In this document: piece by piece, positions 40,455 through 60,295 of the stretch
How the letters are laid out: every line of letters begins with the position of its first letter
Numbering within the stretch: the first letter of the stretch is position 1
Source: a bacterium
GTDB lineage: Bacteria; Eisenbacteria; RBG-16-71-46; CAIMUX01
Length of the DNA stretch: 64,000 nt
Assembly (NCBI GenBank): GCA_030431975.1
Contig: JAUIHP010000001.1
Coordinates: forward strand, 331,597 to 395,596
Direction: 5' to 3'
Made by a program: the position numbers and the translations under genes
The notes under the pieces: generated by a model
The model's database searches: none
What the model saw: only the letters and a program-made list of their open reading frames with translations
What the model was told of the DNA's origin: nothing

Positions 40455-40656
40455 TGCGTGTGGCTCACAGGTGGCGGCTTGCCCCTTCGTGGCGTGAATG
40501 TGAGCTGTGGCGTGTGGCCGGTGCGTTGCACGCATCTCAGGCGCGGCGTGTAGCCAATGAGTGGCGCGTATCTGAGATGCGGCTTGTTGCCCGTACTTGG
40601 CGCGTACCTGAGATGCGGCGTGTGGCCGGTGCGTTGCACGCGACTGATGTCCGACA
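40455..40656. repeat. degenerate ~36-bp tandem repeat array (5-6 copies)
   Basis: 'GCGTGTGGCCGGTGCGTTGCACGCATCTCAGGCGCG' / 'GCGTGTAGCCAATGAGTGGCGCGTATCTGAGATGCG' / 'GCTTGTTGCCCGTACTTGGCGCGTACCTGAGATGCG' / 'GCGTGTGGCCGGTGCGTTGCACGCGACTGATGTCCG'. Confidence 0.8.
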
Positions 40657-40665
40657 CAGCCGACA

Positions 40666-41358
40666 TCATGCCGTGCCCCGCACCATTCGGCGGGCCTTGC
40701 CCAGGATCCTCAGGAATTCCACCGTGTGTTTGATCGGGTGGATATGGCTTCCTTCCTCGCCGTAGATCGTCGAGATCGGGACCCAGTCGAGTCGCATTCC
40801 TTCCCGAATGCATGTCGCGATCATCTCCACCTCGAACTCGAAGCCTTGCTCGTCGCTGCCGAGCAGCTTCTGAAGAAGCGGAGCTGCGATCAGCCGGTAG
40901 CCGGATTGGTTGTCCTCGACTTTCGTTCCCACGGCCCAGGAAAATGTGGCTCGCGCGAACCGATTCGACAGTTGGCGAATGAACGGCATCTTGGAGAAGT
41001 CGCGCGCGCCGATAATGAGTTCGGCCTGCGTCGCAGCGTACTTTTCGAGAAAGCGCGGGATCTCTTCCGGCGCATGTTGGCCATCCGCATCGAGAGTCAG
41101 GACGGCATCGAACCCCTCTTCGAGCGCGATGGCAAACCCGGCGCGGAGAGCTGCGCCTTTCCCCTGATTGGGTATCTGTCGATGCACCCGGGCGCCGGCG
41201 GCCTCGGCTCTCTCGGCGGTCGCGTCCTTGGAACCGTCATCGACGACCAGCAGAGGCAGGTGCGGAAGAACTCCGCGAACGACCTCGGCGATGCCGGCCT
41301 CTTCGTTGTAGCCGGGAACGAGGGCGAGAACTTTGTTCGTACCAGCATCCGCGTTCAT
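40666..41358 (-). CDS. GT2 family glycosyltransferase (polyprenol-phosphate mannose/glucose synthase-like, soluble type)
   Basis: 'ALVPGYNEE', 'LVVDDGSKD', 'LDADGQH', 'GYRL' motifs; ATGA overlap with mfd stop. Confidence 0.8.
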   Translation of the reverse strand: MNADAGTNKVLALVPGYNEEAGIAEVVRGVLPHLPLLVVDDGSKDATAERAEAAGARVHRQIPNQGKGAALRAGFAIALEEGFDAVLTLDADGQHAPEEIPRFLEKYAATQAELIIGARDFSKMPFIRQLSNRFARATFSWAVGTKVEDNQSGYRLIAAPLLQKLLGSDEQGFEFEVEMIATCIREGMRLDWVPISTIYGEEGSHIHPIKHTVEFLRILGKARRMVRGTA

Positions 41359-44300
41359 GCGTTTTGCCCCAGAGCTTTCAGAAGGATGAGCGACTTGGAA
41401 ATGGCCTCTCCCGGACCGGGACTCTTCATCTTGATCTTGTGCCGGCCGCCGAGGTCGAACTCGACCTGACCGGGAACCGCACGAACGAGTTCACCGATCT
41501 CGCTCTTCTCCAGGTCCCGTGCCAGCTCCATCTGCACCAGATCGTCACGCACCACGACTCGCTCAATTCCACCGGCTGCGGCAAGAACGCGAATACGCCG
41601 CAGGGCGAGCAGGTGCCGCACAGGTTCGGGATGTTTCCCGAATCGGTCATTGAGGTCGGCGGCAATCTTCTCCAGTTCATCCGTGTGCCGCGCGTCCGCA
41701 ATCGACTTGTAGAGGTTGATCTTCTCGCGCGGATCAGGAACATAGTCTTCGGGCAGGAATGCTTCGATGTCGGTGACCATCTTGGGCTCGCGGACCTCGA
41801 CCGTTTCGATTCCCTTGAGTTCCCGCACCGCTTCTTCCAAAAGCGAGCAGTACAGCTCGAAACCGACACTGATAATGAAGCCGCTTTGCTGTGAACCGAG
41901 AAGGTCTCCAGCTCCACGAATCTCAAGGTCCCGCAACGCGAGCTGGTAGCCGCTCCCCAAGTCTTCAAACTCTTCCATGGCCTTGAGTCGCTTCTGCGCC
42001 TGCTCCGTCACGACGCGATGCGGTGGCAGCAGAAGATAGGCGTAGGCCTTCCTCGACGAACGGCCGACCCGGCCGCGCAGCTGGTAGAGCTGAGAAAGTC
42101 CGAACATGTCTCCGCGGTTGATGACGATCGTGTTGACGTTGGGAAGGTCGAGCCCGGACTCGATGATCATCGTGGAAACCAGGACGTCGTACTCCCCCTC
42201 CAGGAAGTCGCGCATGACCGTTTCCAGGAGCTTCTCCCGCATCTGTCCGTGGGCCACGGCGATTCGGAGATGCGGAACCAGATTCGAAATGTACGTCGCC
42301 ATTTGATCGATGGTCTGCACGCGGTTGTGGACGAAGAAGGACTGGCCTCCGCGATCGGCTTCCTGCATGAGAGCATGCGCGATGACGTCGTCGCGGAACT
42401 CGAGCACTTCCGTTTGGATCGGAAGACGATTGCGAGGCGGCGTCAGAATGAGACTCATGTCCCGGCCGCCCATGAGCGAGAAGTGCATCGTTCGCGGGAT
42501 CGGTGTCGCGGTCAACGTGAGAACGTCCACGGTCTCGCGGTACTTCTTGAGCTTCTCCTTGGCTTTGACGCCGAAGAGCTGCTCCTCGTCGATGATGAGC
42601 AGGCCCAGATCCTTGAACTTGACGTCCTTGCCCAGAATCTTGTGCGTACCGATGAGCACGTCGATCTGTCCAAGGGTGACCCTCTCCATGATCTCCTTCG
42701 TCTCTTTCGTCGAGCGAAACCTGGAGACGTAGTCGATGACGATGGGCATTCCGTCCAGCCGCTTACGGAAGCTCTCGAAGTGTTGCTTGGCCAGAAGCGT
42801 CGTCGGGACGAGGATCGCGACCTGCTTGCCGTCCTGCGCTGCTTTGAACGCGGCGCGGACGGCCACTTCGGTCTTGCCGTAGCCGACGTCACCGCAGATG
42901 AGCCGATCCATGGGGTGCTCCGACTCCATGTCCGTCTTGACCTCTTCGATCGCCCGCGCCTGATCCGGCGTCTCGTCGAAGGGGAAAGACGCCTCGAGTT
43001 CCTTCATGTACTCGTTGTCGGCGCTGTAGCCAAAACCGGGGCGGGACTTTCGGATCGAGTAGGTCTTGATCAGCTCCTCGGCCATGTCCTTGATGGTCTT
43101 CTTGACCTTGGCCTTGGTCTTGGCCCATGACTTTCCGCCCATCTTGGAAAGTTGCGGTTTGGCGCTGTCGCCTCCCGCGTACTTCTGGACCTTCATCAAC
43201 TGGTCGACGGGAACGTAAAGCGTGTCGCCGCCGGAGTACTCGAGGCTGAGACAGTCCGTCTCCTGTCCGTCGACGGTCAGCCGGTTCATTCCCTTGAAGC
43301 AACCGATTCCGTGCTCGACATGAACGACAAAGTCACCGGGGCTGAGGGCGAGCAGCTCCTTGATCGAAAGCCCGCGCGCGTATCGCCGCGGCGCTGTCCG
43401 TCGGCGGCTTCGCGAGAAGATCTCGTGATCGGTGAGGACCGAGAGCCCCTCGTCGGGCATGAGAAAACCATTGGCGAGGTTTCCGACATGGAACTGTGCC
43501 GGAAGGCGGTGCAGCAACTCGCGCAACCGGTCCATGTGGGCTTCGGTGTCGCAGAGGATGTACATCTCGGGCGTGCGATCGAAAAGCGTCCGCAGGTAAC
43601 CGCGTGTGCGGTCCAACTGACGTCCGAACGTTTCGGGCGGAACGGTTCCGAAGGAGAACTTGCCGGCATCGGTCCCATCGGACTCGTCGATGCGCGCCTC
43701 GATCCGTCCCTCTTTCGTGGAGAGGTCGGCCGTGGCCGCTTCACCGTGAGCGTGACCGCGGAAGTCCGCATGAACGATGTTGATGGGCTTGTCCGTTCCC
43801 GGGTTTGCATTGAGCCCGGTGTCAGAGCCGTTATCGGGCTGTGCTTCAGAGGGCGCACTGCTCAGGTCGACGCCGCTGCCGACCATGATGTGCTTTCCAC
43901 TGGGGAGTTGTTCAACGAGGTCTTCACCGAGATAGAACAGATCGTCCGGCGCTCCTGGTGTCAGCCCAAAGTGACCGGCAAGTGGATCCGCCATCTTCTC
44001 GAGCGCTTCGTACGCCTGCTGAACATCCGCTTCCCATGCGTTCTGGCGGGAGCGCACGTAGGTCGGGCCGTCGACCACGACCATGGAGTTCTCGGGAAAG
44101 TAGTCACGGAGCGGGACTCGGTCGATGCCGAGCGATGGCAGAACCCACTCGATACCTTCCAGCGTTCCGTCGGTTTCCAGGGAGTCGACCATCCGCTCCC
44201 AATCATCTTCGTCCACGCCGTCCGTCGGGTTCTCGCGGATTCGACGAATGGCTTCGGCACTCGGCAGCCACTCCCAGACCGGAAGCACGACGACTTCGTC

Positions 44301-45272
44301 GAGTGTTTCCACGGAACGCTGACTGTAGGAGTCGAACTCGCGGATGGAGAGGATTTCGTCCCCATCGAACTCGATTCGAATCGGGTTGTTGCGACCGAAA
44401 CTGAAGACGTCAAGGATGCCGCCGCGACGGCTGACTTCACCGTACTCCGAAACCATCGAAACCGATTGGAAACCGTCGCCGACGAGGAGTTCCATCATGA
44501 AGTCCAGGTCGACCGAGTCACCGACACGAACGTGATGGATGGATCGCGCAAACGTTTCTTTGGACGGCACCGGCGAGAGCAGACTGACCGCCGTCACCAC
44601 GACGACACGAAGGTTCCCGCAGGCCGGCAGGCCCCCGCGACGAGCTGGATCGGAAAGAGCGGCCAGAAGTTCGATGCGGTTGGCGCGGAGAGACAATGCC
44701 GGGTGGCGCGAGTGATAGGGATCCAACCCGGGATCGGGCAAGGTCGCCACGGTTCCGCGACCGAGAAGGAACTGCAGGTCTTCCTTCAGGTCCTCCGCGG
44801 ACGCAAGGTCGGGTACGACGACGACAACCTCCCGGGCCCGCTCCGCGGCGATGGAGGCAACGAAAAGAGCGCGGGACGAACCCGCGAGTCCCCGCAGCCA
44901 AATGGGCTTGCGTGTCGACTCGTCTGCATCGAGTCGGGAGGTGACGCGACCGAAGGCCGTGGTCTTGCGGAACCGATCGACCAGGGTTTGCGCGATGGCA
45001 GATGGTCCGGCGGATGGTCCGGCAGTTCCCCCGCCGTCCGGTCCGGTGCCTGGTTTAGTGTCCGGCCCAGCATGGCCGGCAGTCCTGGCGGAACCTGCGT
45101 CTCCCGAACCGGATTCCGAGCCGGCCTTCGCGTTGGCAGATCCAGGGTCACCGGCCGCGGAGATACCTGGCTTGTTGGGACTAGAACCGGCCCCTGGCTG
45201 GCCACCCGGTGAAGATGGCGTCTTCGTGGTCACTCTTTCGATTCCTCCATCCCACTGCCGGGCCGCCCCCAA
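41355..45272 (-). CDS. mfd: transcription-repair coupling factor Mfd (N-terminal start uncertain)
   Basis: 'GDFVVHVEHGIGCF' KOW-like TRCF motif, DEAD-box helicase motifs 'GDVGYGKTEVA', 'LIIDEEQLFGV', TRG 'TATPIPRT', C-terminal TRCF domain; low-complexity G/P/S/A-rich first ~100 aa. Confidence 0.9.
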   Translation of the reverse strand: MGAARQWDGGIERVTTKTPSSPGGQPGAGSSPNKPGISAAGDPGSANAKAGSESGSGDAGSARTAGHAGPDTKPGTGPDGGGTAGPSAGPSAIAQTLVDRFRKTTAFGRVTSRLDADESTRKPIWLRGLAGSSRALFVASIAAERAREVVVVVPDLASAEDLKEDLQFLLGRGTVATLPDPGLDPYHSRHPALSLRANRIELLAALSDPARRGGLPACGNLRVVVVTAVSLLSPVPSKETFARSIHHVRVGDSVDLDFMMELLVGDGFQSVSMVSEYGEVSRRGGILDVFSFGRNNPIRIEFDGDEILSIREFDSYSQRSVETLDEVVVLPVWEWLPSAEAIRRIRENPTDGVDEDDWERMVDSLETDGTLEGIEWVLPSLGIDRVPLRDYFPENSMVVVDGPTYVRSRQNAWEADVQQAYEALEKMADPLAGHFGLTPGAPDDLFYLGEDLVEQLPSGKHIMVGSGVDLSSAPSEAQPDNGSDTGLNANPGTDKPINIVHADFRGHAHGEAATADLSTKEGRIEARIDESDGTDAGKFSFGTVPPETFGRQLDRTRGYLRTLFDRTPEMYILCDTEAHMDRLRELLHRLPAQFHVGNLANGFLMPDEGLSVLTDHEIFSRSRRRTAPRRYARGLSIKELLALSPGDFVVHVEHGIGCFKGMNRLTVDGQETDCLSLEYSGGDTLYVPVDQLMKVQKYAGGDSAKPQLSKMGGKSWAKTKAKVKKTIKDMAEELIKTYSIRKSRPGFGYSADNEYMKELEASFPFDETPDQARAIEEVKTDMESEHPMDRLICGDVGYGKTEVAVRAAFKAAQDGKQVAILVPTTLLAKQHFESFRKRLDGMPIVIDYVSRFRSTKETKEIMERVTLGQIDVLIGTHKILGKDVKFKDLGLLIIDEEQLFGVKAKEKLKKYRETVDVLTLTATPIPRTMHFSLMGGRDMSLILTPPRNRLPIQTEVLEFRDDVIAHALMQEADRGGQSFFVHNRVQTIDQMATYISNLVPHLRIAVAHGQMREKLLETVMRDFLEGEYDVLVSTMIIESGLDLPNVNTIVINRGDMFGLSQLYQLRGRVGRSSRKAYAYLLLPPHRVVTEQAQKRLKAMEEFEDLGSGYQLALRDLEIRGAGDLLGSQQSGFIISVGFELYCSLLEEAVRELKGIETVEVREPKMVTDIEAFLPEDYVPDPREKINLYKSIADARHTDELEKIAADLNDRFGKHPEPVRHLLALRRIRVLAAAGGIERVVVRDDLVQMELARDLEKSEIGELVRAVPGQVEFDLGGRHKIKMKSPGPGEAISKSLILLKALGQNA

Positions 45273-47005
45273 CCGTTGGCCGCTGCATGCACATCCACAC
45301 GGAGTGTCATCGGTTCACCGTCTGCGGAAGTGCGACACGGTACGGTCCGGGTCATGTTCCCGACGTCAACATGCACCACGTATTCGCGTCCCGGCTGCAG
45401 CCGGGCGGTCAGATGGTCGTTCATGTCGGCGCGGTCCGAACGGGTCACGCCCGCAAACACTCGCGCTCCTGATGTGTCGCGTACTTCGATTCGCGTTGGC
45501 ACTCGTTCTTCCCTCTGGTCGTAAGCGACAAAGCGGACGAGAGCCTTGCGGTCCGTGCCCGTCCGTCCGGTAGTGCGGGGAGCGTACCGATCCGTCACGT
45601 TGACGCCGTGGACGTAGTGGACATTCAGGTCCCAGGACATTGGAAAGATCGTGCCTGTCCGTTCGTAGCTCGTCGCATAGATGGCGTGAACGGGAACGTC
45701 TTTCTGCGCACGCGCCGCCCGGTCGCCGAACCAGACATCGTTGAGACGATCGCCGGCCGGCTCCGCGGCGCCGGTGTAGAACCATTCTCCGTCCCAAACC
45801 TCGACCCAGGAATGATTCCCGCTGCTGTCCGCCCAAAGCGGAGTCCCGACCAGTCGAGCCGGCACGCCAACGGAACGACACGCATGGGTCAACAGAACGG
45901 AGAGACCAGTACACGTTGCTTTCTGCTCTTCCACCACCTGAGACACAGACTGGTCGTTACGGGAACGCTCCTTCGAGTAGATGACACCGTAGTGCGGAAA
46001 GATCTCCTGGTTCAGCCGGACCGCAGCTTCCGAAGGCGACTTCGATCCGGCGACAATTTCAAGACACGTCTCCCGCAGGATGGGCCTCCAACGATCGCGC
46101 GGCTCCGTCACCGAGTAGTAAGGAAGAATGCCGTTGAGAAAGAGCTCACGTGAGACGCGGCCCTTCCACGGAGACGACTCCCACGCACGATAGGCGTAGT
46201 CGACATGTTCGAGCAGAAACTCCGCATCGAGAGTACGCAGGTCGTGGGCCGGCATGTGTTCGATGAGGAAGGCCATACCGGTCCGCTGTGCATGAGGAAC
46301 GGTCCGCCAGGCCCGTTCGATCTCGTTCCCATTGGCTCCGGCGGTGCGGACTGCAGAGGTTACGTAGTCGGGCATGGTCGCCGCAGATGAGCCGGCCGAC
46401 AGTGAGGGAGTCGCGCTGAGGACCAATGCACAGGCGCCGATGGTGGCGCTGATGAGCACACGAAGTCGTCCGGCTAGTCCGGGTAGGTCGGGTCGTCCGG
46501 GTCGTCCGGGCCATCCGGGTAGTTCGGGTAGTTCGGGTAGTTCGGGTAGTTCGGGTATTTCGGGTAGTTCGGGTAGTTCGGGTAGTTCGGGTAGTTCGGG
46601 AATGATGGACGAATCAAGCAAGCCGAGCGGTCCGGATGTAGCTTTGGCCAGCGACGGAACCATCGCGTCTCTGCGTTGCCTCCGCCCCCTCGTGGATGAC
46701 GATCGGACGGAGCCGCCGAGCCGGCCAAGCGACTGGCGTTGTCTCTCGCTTCCGGATCCGAGCTTTGGGCCACTCTCTGGCGGTCGGTTCATCTTTGACA
46801 CTCTTCTCGCCTCTCGTCGGCCTGTCGGCTCGTCGGCGTTTTGGCACTCGTCGGCCTGTCGGCTTTCGTCGGCTCGTGGGCTCGTGGGCGTTTTCGGCTC
46901 TCGTCGGCCTGTCGGCATCGTCGTTTTTGGCGCACGGCAAATGATCCGAAAGCCGAGACCTTCGCCTCCGCGTTCGGCATTCCTGCCGGAGAATCCCCGC
47001 CGCAA
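45230..47005 (-). CDS. transglutaminase-like cysteine protease domain protein (start uncertain)
   Basis: Transglutaminase core 'CTGLSVLLTHACRSVGVPARLV...GNHSWVEVWDGEWF'; candidate start GTG 46459 before hydrophobic 'LISATIGACALVLSATPSLSA'; the ORF extends to 47005 through (PEL)n repeats and an Arg/Lys-rich region. Confidence 0.6.
   Translation of the reverse strand: MRRGFSGRNAERGGEGLGFRIICRAPKTTMPTGRREPKTPTSPRADESRQADECQNADEPTGRREARRVSKMNRPPESGPKLGSGSERQRQSLGRLGGSVRSSSTRGRRQRRDAMVPSLAKATSGPLGLLDSSIIPELPELPELPELPEIPELPELPELPELPGWPGRPGRPDLPGLAGRLRVLISATIGACALVLSATPSLSAGSSAATMPDYVTSAVRTAGANGNEIERAWRTVPHAQRTGMAFLIEHMPAHDLRTLDAEFLLEHVDYAYRAWESSPWKGRVSRELFLNGILPYYSVTEPRDRWRPILRETCLEIVAGSKSPSEAAVRLNQEIFPHYGVIYSKERSRNDQSVSQVVEEQKATCTGLSVLLTHACRSVGVPARLVGTPLWADSSGNHSWVEVWDGEWFYTGAAEPAGDRLNDVWFGDRAARAQKDVPVHAIYATSYERTGTIFPMSWDLNVHYVHGVNVTDRYAPRTTGRTGTDRKALVRFVAYDQREERVPTRIEVRDTSGARVFAGVTRSDRADMNDHLTARLQPGREYVVHVDVGNMTRTVPCRTSADGEPMTLRVDVHAAANGWGRPGSGMEESKE
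46479..46600. repeat. 9-bp tandem repeat (GGGTAGTTC)n, ~13 copies; encodes (PEL)n if translated on minus strand
   Basis: 'ccgggtagttcgggtagttcgggtagttcgggtagttcgggtatttcgggtagttcgggtagttcgggtagttcgggtagttcggg' with degenerate copies upstream. Confidence 0.9.
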
Positions 47006-47163
47006 CGTTGGGATGACTCGCCGACCTCCGTCGCCAGATTCTACCTCAACTGGTCAAATCTGCACGATCTGGTATCCTCCTCCGCTGACAATTCAGATGC
47101 GTCTTTAATTCTCGTGTTGGCGGACCTGCCCGATGACGTCCGCCTCTCGTCGGGGGAGATGAA

Positions 47164-48072
47164 ATGAAGCTGATCGGACGAATCCTGAGCATGTTGGTGG
47201 GGTTGGTTCTCGCCGCCGTTGTCGCAGTTTGGTTCTTGAGCGAGCAACGACTCGGCAAGGACCATACGGCGGACGTCAGCGTCGACAGTTCGGGAATCAT
47301 GGTGACGTCCGACTCCGCCTCGGTGGCGCGCGGTCAGTACCTTGCCCACAGCTTGCTCGCGTGCACGGAGTGTCACGGTTCGGACTTCGGCGGCCAAATG
47401 TTCGTCGACTCCGGCGCAATGGGACGGATTCCCGCGACCAATCTCACGAGTGGAAAAGGAGGCCTCGGATCCTCCTATTCCGTCGAAGACTGGGACCGCG
47501 CCATTCGGCACGGCGTCGGCCGGGATGGACGGGGACTTTTCGTGATGCCGTCGGAAGCCTACGTCTACCTGACCGACGGAGAGATGAGCGACCTTCTCTC
47601 CTATCTCCAGACCGTTCCTCCTGTAGACCGTGAGTTCGCTCCGCGTTCGTTCGGCCCCATCGGCCGAATGCTCGCGGCGACAGGCCAGCCGCTCTTCCCG
47701 GTCGACCGAACCGAACACGACACGAGCCGTCCAAACACCGCGCCGGTCATCCCGGGAGTCGAACGAGGAAAGCATCTCGCCAAGGTGTCGGGTTGTGAAG
47801 CCTGCCACGGAGCCAGTCTCGCCGGCGGAAAAGTCGCCGGCGCCGATCCATCCTGGCCTCCGGCGGGCAACCTGACCCCACACGCCGAGGGGCTCGCCCG
47901 CTACGACCTCGCGTCGTTCTCGAAGGCGGTGCGGACGGGAGCGAAGGTCGACGGAACCCAGATCGATGCGAAGGTGATGCCATGGCAGAGCTACAGCGGC
48001 CTGCGTGACGAGGAACTCCGCTCGTTATGGGCCTACATGAACTCGCTGCCGGCTACAGAGACCCCGAAGTAG
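47164..48072 (+). CDS. diheme c-type cytochrome, membrane-anchored
   Basis: Two CxxCH motifs 'CTECHG' and 'CEACHG'; N-terminal TM 'ILSMLVGLVLAAVVAVWFL'. Confidence 0.75.
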   Translation: MKLIGRILSMLVGLVLAAVVAVWFLSEQRLGKDHTADVSVDSSGIMVTSDSASVARGQYLAHSLLACTECHGSDFGGQMFVDSGAMGRIPATNLTSGKGGLGSSYSVEDWDRAIRHGVGRDGRGLFVMPSEAYVYLTDGEMSDLLSYLQTVPPVDREFAPRSFGPIGRMLAATGQPLFPVDRTEHDTSRPNTAPVIPGVERGKHLAKVSGCEACHGASLAGGKVAGADPSWPPAGNLTPHAEGLARYDLASFSKAVRTGAKVDGTQIDAKVMPWQSYSGLRDEELRSLWAYMNSLPATETPK

Positions 48073-48084
48073 CCGTCTAAGTAG

Positions 48085-48176
48085 ACCCAGAGGTGGACCC
48101 GTCGGTAGTGGACGCCGAGGTGGACGCGGAGGTGGACGCCTAGGTAGACGCCCTAGGCGCGGAGGTGGACGCGTAG
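48085..48176. repeat. ~12-bp tandem repeat (GAGGTGGACGCN) x ~8 downstream of the cytochrome gene
   Basis: 'agaggtggacccgtcggtagtggacgccgaggtggacgcggaggtggacgcctaggtagacgccctaggcgcggaggtggacgcg'. Confidence 0.75.
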
Positions 48177-48327
48177 CCTGGCGACGCGAGCGTCGCGGGT
48201 ACGGCCGCTGTTGATGCGGGAGGCAGACTCAGGTGCAGCTGGCACAAGGAGACCCGCCGCCACGCATCGACTAGCGTTACGCAACGGCGGGCTCGAATCG
48301 GCACTGCTCAGCCAACGCCTGAGGGAG

Positions 48328-49602
48328 TTAGCGAATTCGAACGACTCTTGCTGCTACGGACTCCCGATCGGTGCGGAACTCGACCCAATAGGTTCCCGCC
48401 GGGACTTCTCGTCCCTGTGAGTCGCGGCCATCCCACAGGATCTCGTGTGCACCTGCTCGCAACACTTCGTTTTCGAACAGGGTCTGCACCGTCCGCCCGT
48501 TGACGTCGACGACCAGCGCAGTTGCGGACTTCGCGTCGGCCGCGAGCTGGAACGTCAATCCGGATTCACCGCGGAACGGGTTCGGGTAAGCCATGATCGT
48601 TTGTGCATCCGGCTGGTAGCCGGATCCAATGCTGCCTGGACCTCCGGGGTTTCCTGGACCGCCAGGACTTCCTGGGCCTCCAGGGCTTCCTGGGCCTCCC
48701 GGATCTCCGATACCTCCCGGGCTTCCCGGATCCACATCGGTCGTGAATTCCGGACTTCGACCGACCCCGATGGAGGCGATGGGCGCGAAGTTGTCTTCGC
48801 GCAGCAGAACCAGGTCCCACAGACCATGCTCCTCCTCGCTCAGCCATTCGACCTCGGCGGAGATTGTCTGGAAGTCACCCTCCGCGATTTCTGCTTCCCC
48901 AAAGATCCATTCGTCGGCAGGCATTCCGTTGATCGAGAGGACTTGCTGATCCGTGTCCCAACCTTCGGGGCCCCAGATCTGCCAGAGATAGACGAACTGC
49001 GTCGGTTCGTTACCGAGGTTCCAGATGTCCGCCTCGAATGTGACCGGATCGAGCGGATGAAGGAAACGATGGGACTCCTCGAAGTACCAATCCAAGCAGG
49101 ACAGGGGCTGGTCGCGTAGGGTGCCGCCCAACCACGAGGAGCCCGTGCCTTCGATGACTGCCCAGTAGCAGACCGACTCGTTGAAATCGAGTTCTTCCGG
49201 ACGTTGCATGAGTACACGAACGACCTCGCATTCCCCCGGCCACAGCGAGAAGGAAGCAGGGCTCAGGAACTCATGGTCGGGGAGCACGCCCTCCGTGCAG
49301 TCGTAGAAGATTTCACCCGGCTCCAGTCGAACGTCGTAGAAGACCTGTTCGAAGCCCCAATTGCAGACCGTGATCTCGACGACGACCTCGGAGCTTCCGC
49401 AAAAGTTGCTCGTCGTCGGGACATGCAGACCGCCACTGGTCGTAGCCTGCACGTCCTCGCCGAAAAGGAGACCGGCAAAGGCGACGGCAATGGCAACGGC
49501 AATGGCAAAGATGCATCGGGTCGGGACACGTCCGAGTTTCCGCCCGGTTCGGGTTACCAACGGCAGCCTCTGTACCCAAGCTCTCATCGTCCAATCTGTC
49601 AT
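48328..49602 (-). CDS. secreted protein with FlgD-Ig-like / T9SS-type C-terminal domain
   Basis: GGAGAGGAG SD before ATG 49602; signal 'IFAIAVAIAVAFAGLLFG'; 'PGSPGGIGDPGGPGSPGGPGSPGGPGNPGGPG' linker; CTD 'AYPNPFRGESGLTFQLA...VVDVNGRTVQTLF...AGAHEILWDGRDSQGREVPAGTYWVEFRTD'. Confidence 0.65.
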   Translation of the reverse strand: MTDWTMRAWVQRLPLVTRTGRKLGRVPTRCIFAIAVAIAVAFAGLLFGEDVQATTSGGLHVPTTSNFCGSSEVVVEITVCNWGFEQVFYDVRLEPGEIFYDCTEGVLPDHEFLSPASFSLWPGECEVVRVLMQRPEELDFNESVCYWAVIEGTGSSWLGGTLRDQPLSCLDWYFEESHRFLHPLDPVTFEADIWNLGNEPTQFVYLWQIWGPEGWDTDQQVLSINGMPADEWIFGEAEIAEGDFQTISAEVEWLSEEEHGLWDLVLLREDNFAPIASIGVGRSPEFTTDVDPGSPGGIGDPGGPGSPGGPGSPGGPGNPGGPGSIGSGYQPDAQTIMAYPNPFRGESGLTFQLAADAKSATALVVDVNGRTVQTLFENEVLRAGAHEILWDGRDSQGREVPAGTYWVEFRTDRESVAARVVRIR

Positions 49603-49659
49603 GAAGAACTCCTCTCCCAGTCGTTCTGTCCAAGGCCGCCCCATGGCTTGCACCTTTTC

Positions 49660-49965
49660 GCCGGCGTAGGCATTCCCGGACGGCTCGCGCATACCAAACC
49701 GGCTATTGCATTGCCAACCGGCTCGCACATTCCCCAACCGGCGTACGCATTCCGGGACGGCTCGCGCATACCAAACCGGCTACTGCATTGCCAACCGGCT
49801 CGCTCATTCCCAACCGGCGTACGCACTCCGGGACGGCTCTCTCATACCAGACCGGCTGGTGCATTCCCCGAGCGCACGCATTCGCCAAGCGGCGCTCGCA
49901 TTCCCTGGCCAACGCATTCCCCATCCAGCGCACGCATTGCCTACGGGCTCGCCCCTTCCCCAGCC
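49660..49965. repeat. ~76-bp tandem repeat x ~4 (progressively degenerate) with internal GCATTCC...ACCGGCT sub-repeats
   Basis: 'GCATTCCCGGACGGCTCGCGCATACCAAACCGGCTATTGCATTGCCAACCGGCTCGCACATTCCCCAACCGGCGTAC' then a near-identical copy at 49738-49813, then diverged copies. Confidence 0.85.
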
Positions 49966-50160
49966 GGCGCAGACCTCTTTCGAAGCGGGCACTGGAGTGA
50001 CCGCCTTCAAAGGAACCAACGCCGGAGTTCGGACAATTCGCACAACAAGAGTGAGCCAACTCGGTTGATCAGGATCCGCCCTTCCCGGGACGCAAACGCC
50101 ACCCTTCCTCTTCTGACGTCCCGGAGGTGTCGAGGAGAAAAACTGATGGCGGGCACTTAC

Positions 50161-50258
50161 GCCTGGTCCCGTACGACTCGTCCCGTACGACTGGTGCCGT
50201 ACGACTGGTCCCGGACGACTAGTCCCGCACTCCTGGTCCCGCACTCCTGGTCCCGTAA
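50161..50258. repeat. 14-15-bp tandem repeat (GTCCCGTACGACTNG) x 7
   Basis: 'ggtcccgtacgactcgtcccgtacgactggtgccgtacgactggtcccggacgactagtcccgcactcctggtcccgcactcctggtcccgtaag'. Confidence 0.85.
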
Positions 50259-50417
50259 GACCCTTCCAGAGGCTCGATTGAACTCTTCCGGGCTGGCGGC
50301 CGGCTGCGAGACACGCGAACCGGCACCTTCCTTGGGTTCGCAGCCCTATCTGCCAGCCATGAGCGAGTGGTCGGAGGGCAACCGGATCCTGAGCGAGTTC
50401 GGACTCGGACTTCTTCG

Positions 50418-50483
50418 GGATCGAGTCTGGTCGTGGCAGGGATCGCGGTTGGTCGAGGCGGGGATCGCGCTTGGTCGTGGCAG
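50418..50483. repeat. 18-bp tandem repeat (GGTCGTGGCAGGGATCGC) x 3
   Basis: 'gtctggtcgtggcagggatcgcggttggtcgaggcggggatcgcgcttggtcgtggcagggatcgccgctg'. Confidence 0.8.
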
Positions 50484-50630
50484 GGATCGCCGCTGACTGG
50501 GCTCCGCTCCGACCGATGAACGAGACAGTTTCCGTCTATAGTGGAATGTCGCGACTCTTCGGAGAGGCGAAAGCCGTGATGTTCGGGTCGGTCCCTGCTA
50601 TGCTCGCGCAGCGAAATGGAGGGTTCAATC

Positions 50631-51023
50631 ATGCTGCCGCGAGTCAGCGACTACATGGACACGGTCGTCCACACACTGAAGCCGGATGACGAAGTCGTCT
50701 CGGCTGTCCGGTTCCTGCTCAAGCACCAGGTGACGGGCGCGCCTGTCGTCAACGACGCTGGCGAAGTCGTCGGCATCCTCACCGAGAAGGATTGCCTTCA
50801 GCTACTGTCCTCAGGCCACCAGGCCGACTTCCCGCAGGGCAAGGTCGAAGACTTCATGACCCACAAGGTCATCACAGTCTCACCAGGGATGAACGTCTAT
50901 TTCGTCGCGGGCATGTTCCTCAACAACTACATGCGCCGCTTTCCGGTGATCGACAACGGCAAGCTCGTCGGAGCCATCACCCGCTTCGACATCCTCAGGG
51001 CAATCGACGAAAACCTTCCATAG
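50631..51023 (+). CDS. CBS domain pair protein
   Basis: Two CBS motifs ('VTGAPVVNDAGEVVGILTEKD', 'RRFPVIDNGKLVGAITRFDIL'); GGAGGG SD 7 nt before ATG 50631. Confidence 0.75.
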   Translation: MLPRVSDYMDTVVHTLKPDDEVVSAVRFLLKHQVTGAPVVNDAGEVVGILTEKDCLQLLSSGHQADFPQGKVEDFMTHKVITVSPGMNVYFVAGMFLNNYMRRFPVIDNGKLVGAITRFDILRAIDENLP

Positions 51024-51065
51024 CCAGCTTTCCGACCCCGGGCCCCGGACCGTGGCCCGGACCCA

Positions 51066-51140
51066 GGGCGCGGCCCCTGGCCTCCGAACTCCAGGACTCT
51101 GGGCGCGGACCCTGGCCTCCGAACTCCAGGACTCTGGCCG
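51066..51140. repeat. 35-bp direct repeat x 2 containing the palindromic core CCAGGACTCTGG
   Basis: 'gggcgcggcccctggcctccgaactccaggactct' repeated immediately after the CBS gene stop. Confidence 0.7.
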
Positions 51141-51326
51141 CGAAACCCTAGGCTTGGGGCTGCCCCTAAAGTTTGGACCCGAATCCGGGCGTGGGTTCGA
51201 ACAGAGACCAGGGCCCAACTTGGGCGTGAACTAGAACCTGGACTGGGGCTTGCACCGGGCTCGGACCGGAACCGGAATTCGAGAGACCCGGGCCATCACC
51301 GATCTCGTCGGCCCGACGGAGTCAGG

Positions 51327-51845
51327 CTAGCCGAGTTTGCTGCGAAGCCTTGTCATGATGGCCAGATGGTGGTCATCGTGTTCCGCGACAAAAAAGCATA
51401 GGTCGATGACTCGCATGGGTTGCTGCAGCCGCGGATGGAGCGAGGTCGATGCCGCCTCCTCCGGGCTCATCTTCTCGAGTCGATCGACGAGTTCCGATCG
51501 GGACTGCCGAAATCCATCCGTAAGCTCCACGAGCTTGCGGCTATTGTGCTCAGCCTCATAGGTCTTCGCGTTGGTCAGGTCCGCAGCCCGCAGCACGGCC
51601 TCCCCGGCCAGGAAGTCCTCGATCCGCCCCAGCCAGAGTGACTCCAAGTCCCAGAGATGACCGATATGCTCCTGGAAGGACCAGTCCTCCCCATCGCGAA
51701 TCGTCAGAATCGCCGGTGGCGTCGTCGCACAGTGTTCCTCGACACGAACCGGCGCGCCACGAAGTCGCTCGACGAGCGTCGGGAACAGCTCCTGGGGAGG
51801 CTCGTACGGAAACTCCCGCTCGAACCATTTCGTCAGATCGAACAT
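51327..51845 (-). CDS. DinB-family (DinB_2) metal-dependent protein
   Basis: 'HIGHLWDLE' and 'AEHDDHHLA' His motifs of DinB/YfiT fold; ATG 51845. Confidence 0.65.
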   Translation of the reverse strand: MFDLTKWFEREFPYEPPQELFPTLVERLRGAPVRVEEHCATTPPAILTIRDGEDWSFQEHIGHLWDLESLWLGRIEDFLAGEAVLRAADLTNAKTYEAEHNSRKLVELTDGFRQSRSELVDRLEKMSPEEAASTSLHPRLQQPMRVIDLCFFVAEHDDHHLAIMTRLRSKLG

Positions 51846-52429
51846 CTCGCCCTCCTCCGTCGATGGCTCACGCACGGCTGACGCTTCAAGAGGACACTAA
51901 GCCCCTCAGCCTCGAGGCGTGCATCGAGAATGCATGCCACCGATCGAAAACGTCCTCCGACTTCGTTCTTTCGTTTGATGCACACCGGAACCTTGGGAGA
52001 CCGGGAGCAGTTCCGACTCCAGCGTCAACTACTCGGTGCAGGACTTCGACCCGTCCGTCCTTGGCTCTGCAAAAAGCGAACCTACCCGAGCGCGTTTGAA
52101 CTACGAAGAAGCAATTGGCCCAGCGGATCCGGCGCGACGGCTGCCGGTTGAAGCTGAAGAAGATCTCACCCATTACCCGGGCACGAACCATTGCGAACAG
52201 CCGTACTGGCACGATGAGCGCACCCGCCGCGGGTACAGACGAATTCGCAGGGCCGGACCCAACAGGCAACTGCAGTTCGCGCGATGCCGCACCCGCAGCG
52301 GGTACAGATTCCGATTCACCTATTGTTATCACCTATAGTTATTGCCGACGCGTTGTCGATTCGAGACGTGGATTCGCCGACGACGATCCCGCTGGTCCGT
52401 TGTTTGCAGGACTGTCGGACGACCGCGAC

Positions 52430-52660
52430 GATCTCTCGCCGGGTTCGTTATGTCGGGTTCGTTATGTCGGGTTCGTTCATCACGTCGTTTCGCAAGGTCG
52501 TTCGTCAGGCTCGTTCGTCAGGTTCGTTCGTCGGGTTGGGTCCTCGGGTTGGGTCCTCGGGTTGGGTCCTCGGGTTGGGTCCTCGGGTTGGGTCGTCAGG
52601 CTCGCTTTGTCAGGTTTGTTCGTCGGGTTTGTCTCGTCAGGTGCGCCCGTCCTTGGGGGG
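52430..52660. repeat. array of related ~13-bp tandem units (GGGTTCGTTATGTC x3; GNTCGTTCGTCAG x3; GGGTTGGGTCCTC x5; degenerate tail)
   Basis: 'cgggttgggtcctcgggttgggtcctcgggttgggtcctcgggttgggtcctcgggttgggtcgtcagg' flanked by 'gggttcgttatgtcgggttcgttatgtc' and 'caggctcgttcgtcaggttcgttcgtcggg'. Confidence 0.85.
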
Positions 52661-53006: not shown

Positions 53007-54786
53007 GTGATCGACGCCACAACTCATAGCAATCCGACCGTTGGCAGATGCGAGTCAGGTCAGGGCCAGGTCGCACCACCGAAAGAGAGACTGACGTCCC
53101 GATGCACAATCGAGGCACGTAGAGTCTCGCTTCGGCAACTGAACGACGGCCACTTGCTCCATCAAATGGGGCGCCTGCGAGAACGGGAACGACGAACGCT
53201 CCTCGACATGTTGCTCCATCTCAACGAGGTGTACCGAAGGAAGCTTCACCTTCGCGAGGGTTACGGTTCCATGTTCCGGTACTGCACGGACGCTCTCGAG
53301 TATTCGAAGTCCGCCGCATGCCGGCGGATCCAGGCTGCGCGCTGCCTTGGGCGGTTTCCGACGCTGGACCGCTGGATCGAGAAGGGTGAGATCCGAGTCA
53401 GTCACCTGTGTTTGATCGAACCGGTTCTAAGCCCGAAGAATCTCGACTCGATGATCCATGCGATCAGGGGCAGGACCCAGGCCGAGGGTGGAGCAAATCG
53501 TCGCCCGACACCGGCCGCCCGTTGCCGGTCGAGAGAAGGTGCAACCTGTGAGCATCAGGACAACTTCCGTCCGACCGGGCGGCCCAGACACCGACCGTTC
53601 AACCGAAGTGGCTCAGTCCGGCATCGGACCCAGAATTGCTCGGAACACCGGAGCCAATGCCAATCTCGGTATCACGGCTCGCGCCGACGCCGGTTCGGCA
53701 ACTACCGCCCCGGCGACCGCAGTTCCGAAACCGTTCGCGTCGGACAATGCTGCGTTCGGACACAATGCTGCATCGGACCCTACTACCTCGGCCAACACCA
53801 TTTCGAACGCCGCCAGCTCAACCATTGGTGTCGCCACATCCGACACCGTTGGCCCCTCGGCCGAGCACATCGCATTGGACTCGTCGGACTCCTCGGACTC
53901 GTCGAACTCATCGAACTCGTCGGACTCGTCGGATTCTTCGAGCTCTTCGGGCTCCTCGGGCTCGTTGGGATTTCGCGTCTCATTGGTGTTGTCGCCCAAG
54001 CAGATGGAGAAACTGGAGCGAGTCGTTCAATTGGTTGCGCCCGGGCACCGCTGCCAAGGCACGATGGCCCACGCGCTCGAGAAGGCGATGGACCTGTTTA
54101 TCAAGCAGAACTGTCCGCTGGAAAGGGATGCTCGCCGGGTCGCGAGAGCCACTCAGCAGACCTCGCTGCGCGGCCAAGCGCCTGATCACAACATCGCCGC
54201 AGCGCCGGCCGAGACCGCCCCGGCAACACGCTCGCAGGCAGAGGCCGAACGACGGCACGGCAAGAGCGAGGTCGACACGAAACAAGTCGACACCAAGACG
54301 GTCGACTCCGAACGAATCGACGGTGAGGCGCCCGATACGAAGTCGTTCGACGGTGAGGCGGTCGACGATGAAGCGAGTAAGTCTGGGCGGACGGACATTG
54401 AAGCGGTCGACTCTGGACGGAATGACGGTGAAGCGGGCAACTCTGAACGGAAGGCCCCTGAAGCGGTCGACTCTGAACAGAACGACGCGGTTGGTTGCAC
54501 ACAACGGGCGCGTGACTCTCTGGATCCACTGCCGACCAAGCTACGCGATCGAGTCCTTGCTCGGGACGGTGGGCGCTGCACTTTCGTCGGCCCCGGAGGC
54601 CACCAATGTGGTGCGACACGACGGCTGGAAGTGGACCACATCATCCCACGCGGCAAGGGAGGGGAAACAACCGCAGAGAATCTCAGAACTCTGTGCCGCG
54701 CACACAACCAATTCGAGGCTGACAAAGCCTACGGCCGGAAGTTCATGGAACAACACCGCCGCCACACCGAGCGGCGGCAAGAATGA
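53007..54786 (+). pseudogene. frameshifted HNH endonuclease of the DUF222/'13E12-repeat' type
   Basis: Frame 0 (53007-~53470) has a DUF222-like N-terminus ('GYGSMFRYCTDALEYSKSAACRRIQAARCLGRFPTLDRWIEKGEIRVSHLCLIEP'); frame +1 (53458-54786) carries a Ser/Asp-rich linker and C-terminal HNH ('CTFVGPGGHQCGATRRLEVDHIIPRGKGGETTAENLRTLCRAHN'); the frame 0 continuation after ~53470 is nonsense. Confidence 0.5.
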
Positions 54787-54912: not shown

Positions 54913-55090
54913 CGAGCTCGGGCGTCGAGCTCGGGCGTCGAGCTCGGGCGTCGGGCTCGGGTGCCGCGCTCGGGCGCGTGCTCGGGTGCCGCGCTCGGGC
55001 GCGCACTCAGGCGTCGGGCTCGGGTGCCGCGCTCGGGCGCGAGCTCAGGCGCCGTGCTCGGGTGCCGTGCTCGGGCGCGCTCGGGTGTGT
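54913..55090. repeat. 12-13-bp tandem repeat (GCTCGGGCGYSN) x ~14
   Basis: 'gagctcgggcgtcgagctcgggcgtcgagctcgggcgtcgggctcgggtgccgcgctcgggcgcgtgctcgggtgccgcgctcgggcgcg...'. Confidence 0.85.
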
Positions 55091-56958: not shown

Positions 56959-57276
56959 CGGCGGACTATACGGCCCCAAAGTCGCAGCTGTCCAGATCCG
57001 GCCGCCGGCAGACGGGCGGGACCGAGCAACTCCATGAACGCCGCCGCCAGGCGCGGACGGGCCCATACGCCGGAGGAAACTGGACGCGCACTATGCGGGC
57101 GGGTGGGAACCCGCGCCTAACGAAGCTGGACGCCGCACCGGGCAGTTGGGCACCCGTGCCTCACAAAAGCCGGTCGCTGTCTTGGGCAGTTGGGCACCCG
57201 TGCCTCAGAAGAGCTGGTCGCTGTCGTGGTGGACCGGCGGCTCACGAACCCTGCCGCTGCGGCCGATGCCTGCAGT

Positions 57277-57837
57277 ATGGCGTTTGTCTTTACGCGATCG
57301 GCTCGGGACAAGGCACGTAGCGGATTGCGCTTCGCTACGATCGCTGTACCCGTTGCTGCAGGATTGCTCTACCTCACCATCAGTCGGGAGCTTTGGCTTG
57401 CGGCCGGTGTCCTCGGGCTCTTTGGGGTGCTTGCAGGTTTCGGGTCGTTCATGGCGGTCGTCATGGCGGTTCTGCTGCTCCGTGCCGGGGGTGCGTGGCG
57501 AATCGAGGTGACCGAATCGGCCCTGATCTGGGCATCGCCGACCGATGCCGTCGACCCCTCGTTCGAGATTGCGTTGGCCGACATCGACCATGTCCTGATC
57601 GAAGTCGAGAAAGTCCGGCCTGACGGAACCGACGACATCGACGACTACTTCCTCGTCCGCAGGGATGGCCGCGCCGTAAAGCTGAACAAGGTGAGCGGAG
57701 TCTCCCTCGAGGACCTGGTGGAAGCCCTCACGGCTGAAGGAATAGAGACGCAAAGGCATCTCGGTCACGTCCGGATCGTCGATGGCCAAATCGAGCGCCG
57801 CCCGCCCAAACGTTCACAAAGACGCGCCTCCGCGTAG
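57277..57837 (+). CDS. hypothetical membrane protein
   Basis: Two TM segments 'FATIAVPVAAGLLYLTI...LAAGVLGLFGVLAGFGSFMAVVMAVLLL'; start ambiguous (57190 or 57277). Confidence 0.4.
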   Translation: MAFVFTRSARDKARSGLRFATIAVPVAAGLLYLTISRELWLAAGVLGLFGVLAGFGSFMAVVMAVLLLRAGGAWRIEVTESALIWASPTDAVDPSFEIALADIDHVLIEVEKVRPDGTDDIDDYFLVRRDGRAVKLNKVSGVSLEDLVEALTAEGIETQRHLGHVRIVDGQIERRPPKRSQRRASA

Positions 57838-57849
57838 CCCCGGCACCCG

Positions 57850-58145
57850 ACGGGATCCGCGTTCCAGCCTACGACGAAATCCGTGCTCCAGCCTCCGACG
57901 GCATCCGCGCTCCAGCACCCAGCGGAATCCGTGGTCCAACACCCGACGGAATCCGCGTTCCAGCACCCCCCGACAGAGTCCGCGTTCCACCACCTGGCGG
58001 AATCCGCGTTCCGGCACCCGACGAAATCCGTGCTTCAGCCTCCGACGGAACCCGCGCTCCAGCACCCGACGGAACCCGTGCTCCAGCCTCCGACGAAATC
58101 CGTGCTTCAGCCTCTGACGGAACCCGCGCTGCAACACCCGGCGGC
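57850..58145. repeat. 24-bp tandem repeat x ~12, consensus CCGACGGAATCCGCGYTCCAGCAC
   Basis: 'ccgacgaaatccgtgctccagcctccgacggcatccgcgctccagcacccagcggaatccgtggtccaacacccgacggaatccgcgttccagcacccc...'; no convincing ORF in any frame. Confidence 0.85.
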
Positions 58146-59605: not shown

Positions 59606-59776
59606 GGTCGAATCCTGTCGCGAGGGTTTCCGTTCTGCCGAAGTCAGGAGATCCTCGCACACGAAAGTGGCGAGGATCGCCGGGAGGATAGCCCCTACAC
59701 CCAGACATGTCGCGGACGGAGTCGGTCAGCAAAAGCAGGCAAGCGCGACGGGCTTTGTCCCGGACTTAGTTCCGGG

Positions 59777-60295
59777 CTACTTCCAGGCTTGGGTCTGGGC
59801 TTCGTTCCGGGCTCGCTTCCCGGTTCGGTTCTTTGCGGCTTTCGACAAAGCCCTGGAGGGGTCGCGGGTCAGGGTCTTGATGAACTCGGTCCGCCGAAGT
59901 CGCAGCGCAGACCAATCCGCGTCGACGGCGACAACGCGGACCGGCTCGAAGCCCGCCTCGCCGAAGCCTTCCCAACCGTGGTCGCGGTCAAACTCGCCGG
60001 TGTAGAGCTTCGACGTCTTCTTCGGATAGGCGACCCAGAGGACGGCGTCGCCCTCCGTCTTCGTCGAGACCTTCTTCGCGGCCGCGTTCAGTTGCTTCTG
60101 CGTTTGCGCGAACACGACTACGAAGTCGAAGGTCTTTTTCTCCGACCACCTTCTGGCGACACTCACAGCCGACGGAAGGAACTCGAACTCACGCTCAAAA
60201 CTCTCGGGAGCGTCGACAACCAGAATCGGACTTTGTTGCTTCAGCTGAAGCTTGTCGAAGACACAAGGCACGCGCTTACGTGCGCCCTGTCGCAT
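59777..60295 (-). CDS. hypothetical protein
   Basis: ATG 60295 'MRQGARKRVPCVFDKLQLKQQSPILVVDAPESF...'; overlaps the upstream stop by 20 nt; the track ORF start 60499 is upstream with a low-complexity N-terminus. Confidence 0.35.
   Translation of the reverse strand: MRQGARKRVPCVFDKLQLKQQSPILVVDAPESFEREFEFLPSAVSVARRWSEKKTFDFVVVFAQTQKQLNAAAKKVSTKTEGDAVLWVAYPKKTSKLYTGEFDRDHGWEGFGEAGFEPVRVVAVDADWSALRLRRTEFIKTLTRDPSRALSKAAKNRTGKRARNEAQTQAWK

Follow-up and report, generated by a model that had tools for sequence, protein, structure and literature searches.

The spacer, its flanking genes and its arrays

The intergenic spacer described here lies at positions 49603-50630 of a 64,000-nucleotide stretch of a bacterial contig, referred to below as the window, which is the whole stretch of DNA that was analysed. 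The spacer is 1028 bp long, has divergent genes on either side and carries three tandem-repeat arrays. To its left, the minus-strand gene at 48331-49602 encodes a secreted protein of 424 aa with a FlgD immunoglobulin-like/type IX secretion system (T9SS) C-terminal sorting domain (Pfam FlgD_ig, 2.6e-10; Por_Secre_tail, 0.0039). To its right, the plus-strand gene at 50631-51023 encodes a stand-alone CBS-pair protein of 130 aa (Pfam CBS, 5.4e-29). The initial annotation of the region, made from the sequence alone, had placed the spacer between these two genes, and the Pfam matches on both flanks agree with it. Scores per codon are +0.25 for the T9SS-cargo gene and +0.40 for the CBS gene, and Shine-Dalgarno-like motifs precede both starts. 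The T9SS-cargo start (ATG at 49602) and its GGAGGAG Shine-Dalgarno motif are kept in a relative (Logan contig L084, described below), and the CBS start at 50631 fits the length of approximately 120 homologues, with homologues of 130 aa aligning end to end. Genes assigned by Pfam around the spacer are those for the T9SS cargo, the CBS protein, a cytochrome c, DinB and a transglutaminase.

The three arrays were found by Tandem Repeats Finder (TRF) and, independently, by a seed-extension search. Their TRF scores (331, 124 and 106 for arrays 1, 2 and 3, respectively) exceed the maximum of 55 reached in 200 dinucleotide-preserving shuffles of the spacer. Together the arrays take up approximately 514 of the 1028 bp (50%), which falls short of the initial description of a region built almost entirely from repeats, and the ~510 bp outside them show no additional periodicity by autocorrelation. 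Units within each array are contiguous, with a start-to-start spacing equal to the unit length, and are thus not parted by unique spacers of similar length as in clustered regularly interspaced short palindromic repeats (CRISPR).

Array 1 (49661-49962) comprises 16 units of ~19 bp by unit segmentation, with the consensus CCGGC-N4-GCATTCC-NNA. Four diverged 19-bp units form one higher-order repeat of 77 bp, which TRF reports as 2.7 copies with 91% matches at 49661-49865. The 77-bp copies begin at 49661, 49738 and 49814; compared with the first, the second is 95% and the third 73% identical. Past these copies, the array continues as degenerate units of 16-20 bp that fade into unique sequence by ~49962. 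The earlier description of array 1 as four decaying copies of ~76 bp (49660-49965) is therefore a fair account of the 77-bp layer, but it missed the basic unit of 19 bp. The 19-bp units are ~65% alike, and their CGGC and CATTCC blocks are nearly invariant, although position-specific conservation within the unit is marginal by permutation (p ~0.09, seven independent units). Array 2 (50158-50261) contains 7.4 copies of a 14-bp unit (TACGACTGGTCCCG; 83% matches), as first described apart from the fractional copy, and holds two identical neighbouring CACTCCTGGTCCCG units at 50228-50255. Array 3 (50417-50490), previously read as three copies of 18 bp, has a period of 22 bp with 3.4 copies of GGGATCGCGCTTGGTCGTGGCA (3 matches of the unit vs 0.00 expected).

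The arrays were also described at the outset as mutually unrelated, and this was upheld. When the consensus units of 15 intergenic arrays in the window were compared, the best cross-match (11/14) equalled the shuffled-unit null, and a motif common to array 1, array 3 and a 24-bp array at 57843 (GGAAT[GC]CGCG) was rejected on the same ground. A position weight matrix (PWM) of the 19-bp unit found 10 sites outside array 1 in the window vs 10.1 expected, and the unit was accordingly rejected as a regulon motif or dispersed element; genome-wide dispersal of the 76-bp unit had been named in advance as a finding that would refute the initial reading, and within the 64 kb that unit is not dispersed either. 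By these comparisons, the arrays are non-dispersed and unit-unique within the 64 kb. The combination of mutually unrelated units and a non-dispersed 19-bp unit points to birth in situ rather than to a mobile element or regulon motif.

The remaining segments of the spacer are unique. The segment proximal to the T9SS-cargo gene (49603-49660) holds the Shine-Dalgarno motif of that gene and one decayed 19-bp unit (49643-49661), whose counterpart in L084 fits the repeat consensus better than the window copy does. The segment between arrays 1 and 2 (49963-50157) shows no periodicity by autocorrelation and has coding scores of zero or below. Between arrays 2 and 3 (50262-50416) a hairpin is predicted by RNA folding at ~50384-50422, and the segment upstream of the CBS gene (50491-50630) has GGAGGG as its Shine-Dalgarno motif, at a distance of 8 nt from the ATG.

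Assembly, coding potential and other signals

A Logan contig assembled independently from run ERR3428548 matches the window at 100% identity over 5990 bp (46571-52560), all three arrays included, and the identical contig is recorded in two samples. The ends of this contig lie inside two other arrays, a 9-bp array at 46471-46600 and a 13-bp array at 52436-52642. The same pattern is seen in Logan short-read contigs of the organism and of its relative, which end inside or at the edge of tandem arrays (window positions 46571 and 52560, and the ends of L084). Such arrays thus fragment short-read assemblies of the lineage, with both ends of Logan contigs L001 and L084 falling in arrays.

The initial annotation found no credible open reading frame (ORF) in the spacer and regarded the listed ORFs as artefacts of translated repeats, and this judgement holds. 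ORFs crossing the spacer have codon log-odds of zero or below and flat GC content at the three codon positions (GC1/2/3). A coding gene via the ORFs at 49204-50496, 50146-50496, 49804-50244 or 50219-50632 was rejected, as these show no codon bias, have no Pfam match and yield only self and repeat-artefact matches with phmmer. In an exhaustive phmmer search of a 297-aa read-through translation against 1.84 billion representatives, only a self match and a few repeat-driven matches were returned, so no protein-coding gene was found in the spacer by homology. The self match is a 116-aa ORF miscalled on the Logan contig; it is held in a public protein collection as P0244, a 116-aa 'protein' called at 50146-50496. 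Since the periods of 19, 14 and 22 bp are not multiples of three, the arrays encode no repeated peptide in one frame. P0244, P0246 and P0248 are entries of public protein collections that consist of translated non-coding 14-bp tandem arrays, and intergenic arrays of this kind therefore give rise to spurious ORF calls.

A known RNA was rejected. Rfam gave no match at the gathering threshold across the whole window and none at E <= 1 in the spacer region, no tRNA or tmRNA genes were found, and predicted folds are near shuffle level. The sense strand of array 1 folds with z = -0.74 relative to shuffles and lacks periodic hairpins, and the CBS-side leader is barely better than shuffles (z = -1.96). 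The region had also been called a divergent promoter region for both genes; its geometry is indeed divergent and upstream of both, but a simple scan of the spacer found no sigma-70-like promoter consensus, nor an intrinsic-terminator consensus. A replication origin was rejected, as there are no DnaA boxes in the spacer and no GC-skew switch in the 64-kb window; GC content is steady at 0.60-0.65, unlike that of an AT-rich unwinding element. Similarity to plasmids or phages was looked for and none was found. Inverted repeats are limited to one weak 15-nt case in 1.2 kb.

Tandem arrays in the neighbourhood and in relatives

Arrays reported by TRF across the whole window were set against a gene map from a codon model. 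In the part from 40 to 60 kb, each examined spacer longer than ~200 bp holds at least one array with its own unit. In addition to the three arrays above, these lie at 40488-40634 (period 36 bp), 46471-46600 (9 bp, x14.4), 46807-46923 (18/52 bp), 48108-48157 (12 bp), 51059-51142 (35 bp), 52436-52642 (13 bp, x15.7), 54913-55079 (13/38 bp), 57096-57229 (44 bp), 57843-58144 (24/72 bp, x12) and 59749-59813 (12/23 bp). The array-bearing spacers include divergent, tandem and convergent gene pairs, with the arrays at 48108-48157, 51059-51142 and 54913-55079 located in convergent spacers. As arrays also occur in convergent spacers, which lack a promoter, promoter tuning cannot be their general explanation. 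The spacer at 49603-50630 is therefore not singular; it is one instance of a regional property.

Tandem repeats make up 33.9% of intergenic DNA in 40-64 kb vs 3.3% in 0-40 kb, and coding density is 78% vs 89% in the same two parts. Array density is 0.36 arrays/kb across the whole window and 1.5 arrays/kb in 46.5-52.5 kb, and tandem repeats constitute 15.5% of a 6-kb stretch. No discontinuity in GC content or skew matches the concentration of arrays in 40-64 kb. Arrays clearly within genes all have periods that are multiples of three, whereas 9 of the 15 intergenic arrays do not. This contrast is expected if a single duplication process acts everywhere and selection filters its products in coding DNA.

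Several other features of the neighbourhood were observed. A second divergent spacer, between a transglutaminase-like gene and the cytochrome c gene (46376-47163), carries the 9-bp (x14.4) and 18/52-bp arrays. If the transglutaminase gene is taken as its longest ORF, the 9-bp array is translated as (PEL)n ahead of a signal-peptide-like segment, and both the start of this gene and the coding status of the array are uncertain. The largest array in the window (57843-58144) has 12.3 copies of a 24-bp unit with higher-order periods of 48 and 72 bp, and is located between a hypothetical ORF (57190-57837, no Pfam match) and the 3' end of mgtE. Two ORFs in different frames overlap, one of 392 aa (53007-54185) and one for an HNH endonuclease (53458-54786; Pfam HNH, 4.5e-8). 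This stretch (53007-54786) contains in-frame 9-bp and 30/60-bp repeats, its N-terminal part has no Pfam match, and it may be a frameshifted or repeat-expanded gene. The longest ORF of a homologue of the transcription-repair coupling factor Mfd (41355-45272), read from a putative start, is extended at its N-terminus by ~120 aa of low complexity in which G, S, P and A abound.

Sampling of this lineage is sparse. Its GuaA is at most 71-72% identical to proteins of metagenome-assembled genomes labelled Gemmatimonadota, Latescibacterota, Eisenbacteria or 'bacterium', and its cytochrome c homologues are 50-52% identical and source-named Candidatus Eisenbacteria. More distant relatives have compact, repeat-poor spacers: GuaA loci have a median of ~0.05 arrays/kb, and no more than one small array was seen at three cytochrome c loci (L208-L210). 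Among CBS homologues, the closest (75% and 70%) are non-syntenic and have compact upstream regions. No T9SS-cargo homologue was found in the genome contig collection, and no relative of the cytochrome c in metagenome contigs.

The sole close and informative relative is the Logan contig L084 (2566 bp; run SRR33375174), whose T9SS-cargo and cytochrome c proteins are 82% and 92% identical to those of the window. At the nucleotide level, the genes are 85-87% identical and 4-fold degenerate sites 65%. In L084, recognisable 19-bp units lie in the 90 bp upstream of the T9SS-cargo gene, where the contig ends inside the array, and array 1 is therefore older than the split between the two lineages. At its other end, L084 breaks off at the margin of the orthologue of the 46807-46923 array. 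The convergent spacer that separates the cytochrome c gene from the T9SS-cargo gene contains one GCGTCTACTTCGG in L084, compared with a run of ~144 bp of such 12-bp units in the window (the neighbouring array at 48108-48157), so that the copy number is ~1 vs 10. A separate observation concerns a 44-bp block at 47037-47080 (GATTCTACCTCAACTGGTCAAATCTGCACGATCTGGTATCCTCC), ~85-125 bp upstream of the cytochrome c start, which is nearly identical in L084 (4-fold sites 65%). By eye it resembles TGGTCA-N16-TGGTATCCT, although the consensus scan did not flag it, and it is possibly an extended -10 promoter or a conserved leader.

Origin of the arrays and alternative explanations

The arrays are local, hierarchical, unit-unique and non-coding; they occur in every gene orientation and vary between relatives. 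The explanation that we hold to be probable, with moderate confidence, is that three independent arrays of the minisatellite or variable-number tandem repeat (VNTR) type, each born locally, have lengthened this non-coding spacer. Each array would have been seeded by a short local sequence and would have grown by replication slippage (slipped-strand mispairing) or unequal sister-strand exchange, after which point mutation would diverge the older units. Later re-duplication of blocks may account for the higher-order repeat in array 1 (77 bp, four units) and for the pair of identical neighbouring units in array 2. The hierarchy of identities (95% and then 73% between 77-bp copies, ~65% between 19-bp units, and an identical 14-bp pair) indicates such repeated rounds of local duplication. 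The effect on the flanking genes would be mainly passive and geometric, as upstream DNA is pushed away or 5' leaders are lengthened, and the arrays would supply sites where length can change.

Some findings weigh against so passive an origin. Array 1 is old, and its proximal units are still recognisable in L084 despite changes at 35% of 4-fold sites; identity over the 90 bp upstream of the L084 gene is 74%, which is not below the neutral level (65% at 4-fold sites). The near-invariance of CGGC and CATTCC across units points the same way, although the permutation result is only marginal, and some constraint on array 1 is possible on these comparisons. Furthermore, a genome-wide mutational bias does not explain why arrays crowd one ~20-kb neighbourhood.

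Tandem repeats are over-represented in the intergenic DNA of prokaryotes, with a mean coverage of 2.1%, a value obtained with a different tool from the one used here (PMC12418385). The present locus belongs to the bacterial intergenic VNTR/minisatellite kind. It shares with such loci head-to-tail, non-coding, intergenic arrays of 10-100-bp units, with one unit per locus and units that decay with age; a copy number that differs between close relatives was seen for the neighbouring 12-bp array (48108-48157). Intergenic VNTRs are a standard typing tool, used in multiple-locus VNTR analysis (MLVA), as in the mycobacterial interspersed repetitive unit (MIRU)-VNTR scheme and with the VNTRs of Xanthomonas and Burkholderia. 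Compared with the usual VNTR locus, this one stands out by its local density, as a single spacer carries three arrays that are unrelated and tandem repeats account for ~34% of intergenic DNA across 24 kb, and by the clear higher-order organisation of array 1 (4 x 19 bp).

Other known repeat systems resemble the locus less closely. Iteron and centromere-like partition arrays, such as parC of R1 and the parS heptads of pSM19035, likewise have clustered direct repeats of 14-22 bp upstream of a gene, but the spacer has no rep or par gene nearby, no DnaA boxes and chromosomal housekeeping neighbours. The phmmer search led to P0246 and P0248, translated 14-bp arrays that are 13/14 identical to array 2. 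One of these arrays is on an unrelated contig, L086 (JGI 3300037247, Ga0392330_0047375; 1686-2063), where 14-bp direct repeats (GGTCCCGAACGAYY) form two clusters of ~10 immediately upstream of a ParA/AAA_31 ATPase gene; an inverted copy separates the clusters, and the layout resembles a centromere or operator. When metagenomes were scanned for GGTCCCG cores repeated three times with a spacing of 14 bp, at least 120 loci emerged, and their variable halves differ in essentially every case. As 14-bp arrays are so common, approximately one chance 13/14 match is expected (a rough estimate), and ParA-centromere homology of array 2 with L086 was rejected as coincidence on this expectation and on the lack of a par gene in the window.

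Phase variation through slipped-strand mispairing occurs at simple-sequence contingency loci, for example in Neisseria and Haemophilus. The spacer shares with these loci slippage-prone repeat tracts beside a gene for a surface or secreted protein. However, its units are 14-22 bp rather than 1-7 bp, its arrays (74-300 bp) far exceed a -35/-10 spacer and do not form in-frame parts of an ORF, the scan detected no promoter consensus, and similar arrays occur at the 3' ends of genes. Repetitive extragenic palindromes (REP), bacterial interspersed mosaic elements (BIME) and miniature inverted-repeat transposable elements (MITE) are also intergenic and non-coding, but the units here are locus-unique, not dispersed in the 64 kb, and without inverted-repeat or hairpin structure.

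The initial annotation had proposed that the arrays could act as tunable spacers or arrays of binding sites. In its protein-binding form, the repeated units would be bound by a DNA-binding protein, or by several (a nucleoid-associated protein or a regulator of either flanking gene, T9SS cargo or CBS), and the number of units would set occupancy or promoter geometry. This is unlikely, even though the arrays occupy a divergent upstream region, the two blocks of the 19-bp unit hardly vary, array 1 is retained upstream of the L084 orthologue, and functional architecture of this kind exists elsewhere, as in L086. The conservation within the unit is not significant, and the motif is no more frequent in the rest of the window than chance predicts. 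Three unrelated units here and a different unit in each other spacer, convergent ones included, would demand many dedicated proteins; periods of 14 and 19 bp would place sites on differing helix faces; and by Pfam no gene for a DNA-binding protein adjoins the spacer. The arrays are thus probably not specific protein-binding-site arrays. With a position that is not distinctive (three convergent spacers carry arrays), a conservation p of ~0.09 and PWM counts at expectation, the regulatory proposal is not supported as it was put forward, and it lacks support specific to this locus. A broader role, as a bacterial counterpart of functional satellite DNA rather than mutational debris, is distinctly unlikely. 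In that case locus-specific arrays would have colonised a ~20-kb neighbourhood, at least two of them holding their place between species with 35% of neutral sites changed, and selection would maintain them, for example as modules for protein binding or spacing by which the nucleoid is organised or adjacent transcription units are insulated.

The arrays could alternatively act in RNA, with array 1 forming a repetitive 5' leader of the T9SS-cargo mRNA whose ~16 GGAAUG motifs would serve as a Csr/Rsm-type sponge or translational decoy, or with the repeats building a small RNA. Array 1 starts just 59 nt upstream of the T9SS-cargo ATG, every unit carries GGAAUG on the mRNA-sense strand, and the comparison with L084 shows no conserved promoter-like block between array and gene, so that the promoter may lie within or beyond the array. 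Nevertheless, this is very unlikely: the sense strand folds no better than its shuffles and has no periodic hairpins to present GGA in their loops, array 1 matches no known RNA family in Rfam, the scan found no terminator-like site, and the CBS-side leader is weakly structured. Hardly credible is an assembly artefact or a real protein-coding gene concealed in the region. Repeats commonly cause misassembly, one gene caller reported the 116-aa ORF, and a 430-aa ORF spans the region. However, the independent assembly reproduces all three arrays exactly, a second lineage from another sample has the proximal units (L084), and the ORFs lack coding scores, Pfam matches, real homologues and periods in multiples of three.

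If the arrays were under selection, the locus would be informative on repeat number as a means by which bacteria space or insulate their transcription units, and nothing found requires that. Read as locally born minisatellite-type DNA, the locus offers a well-controlled case of minisatellites between genes of an uncultured phylum, one in which the arrays are unusually dense locally and include a higher-order repeat like that of satellites.

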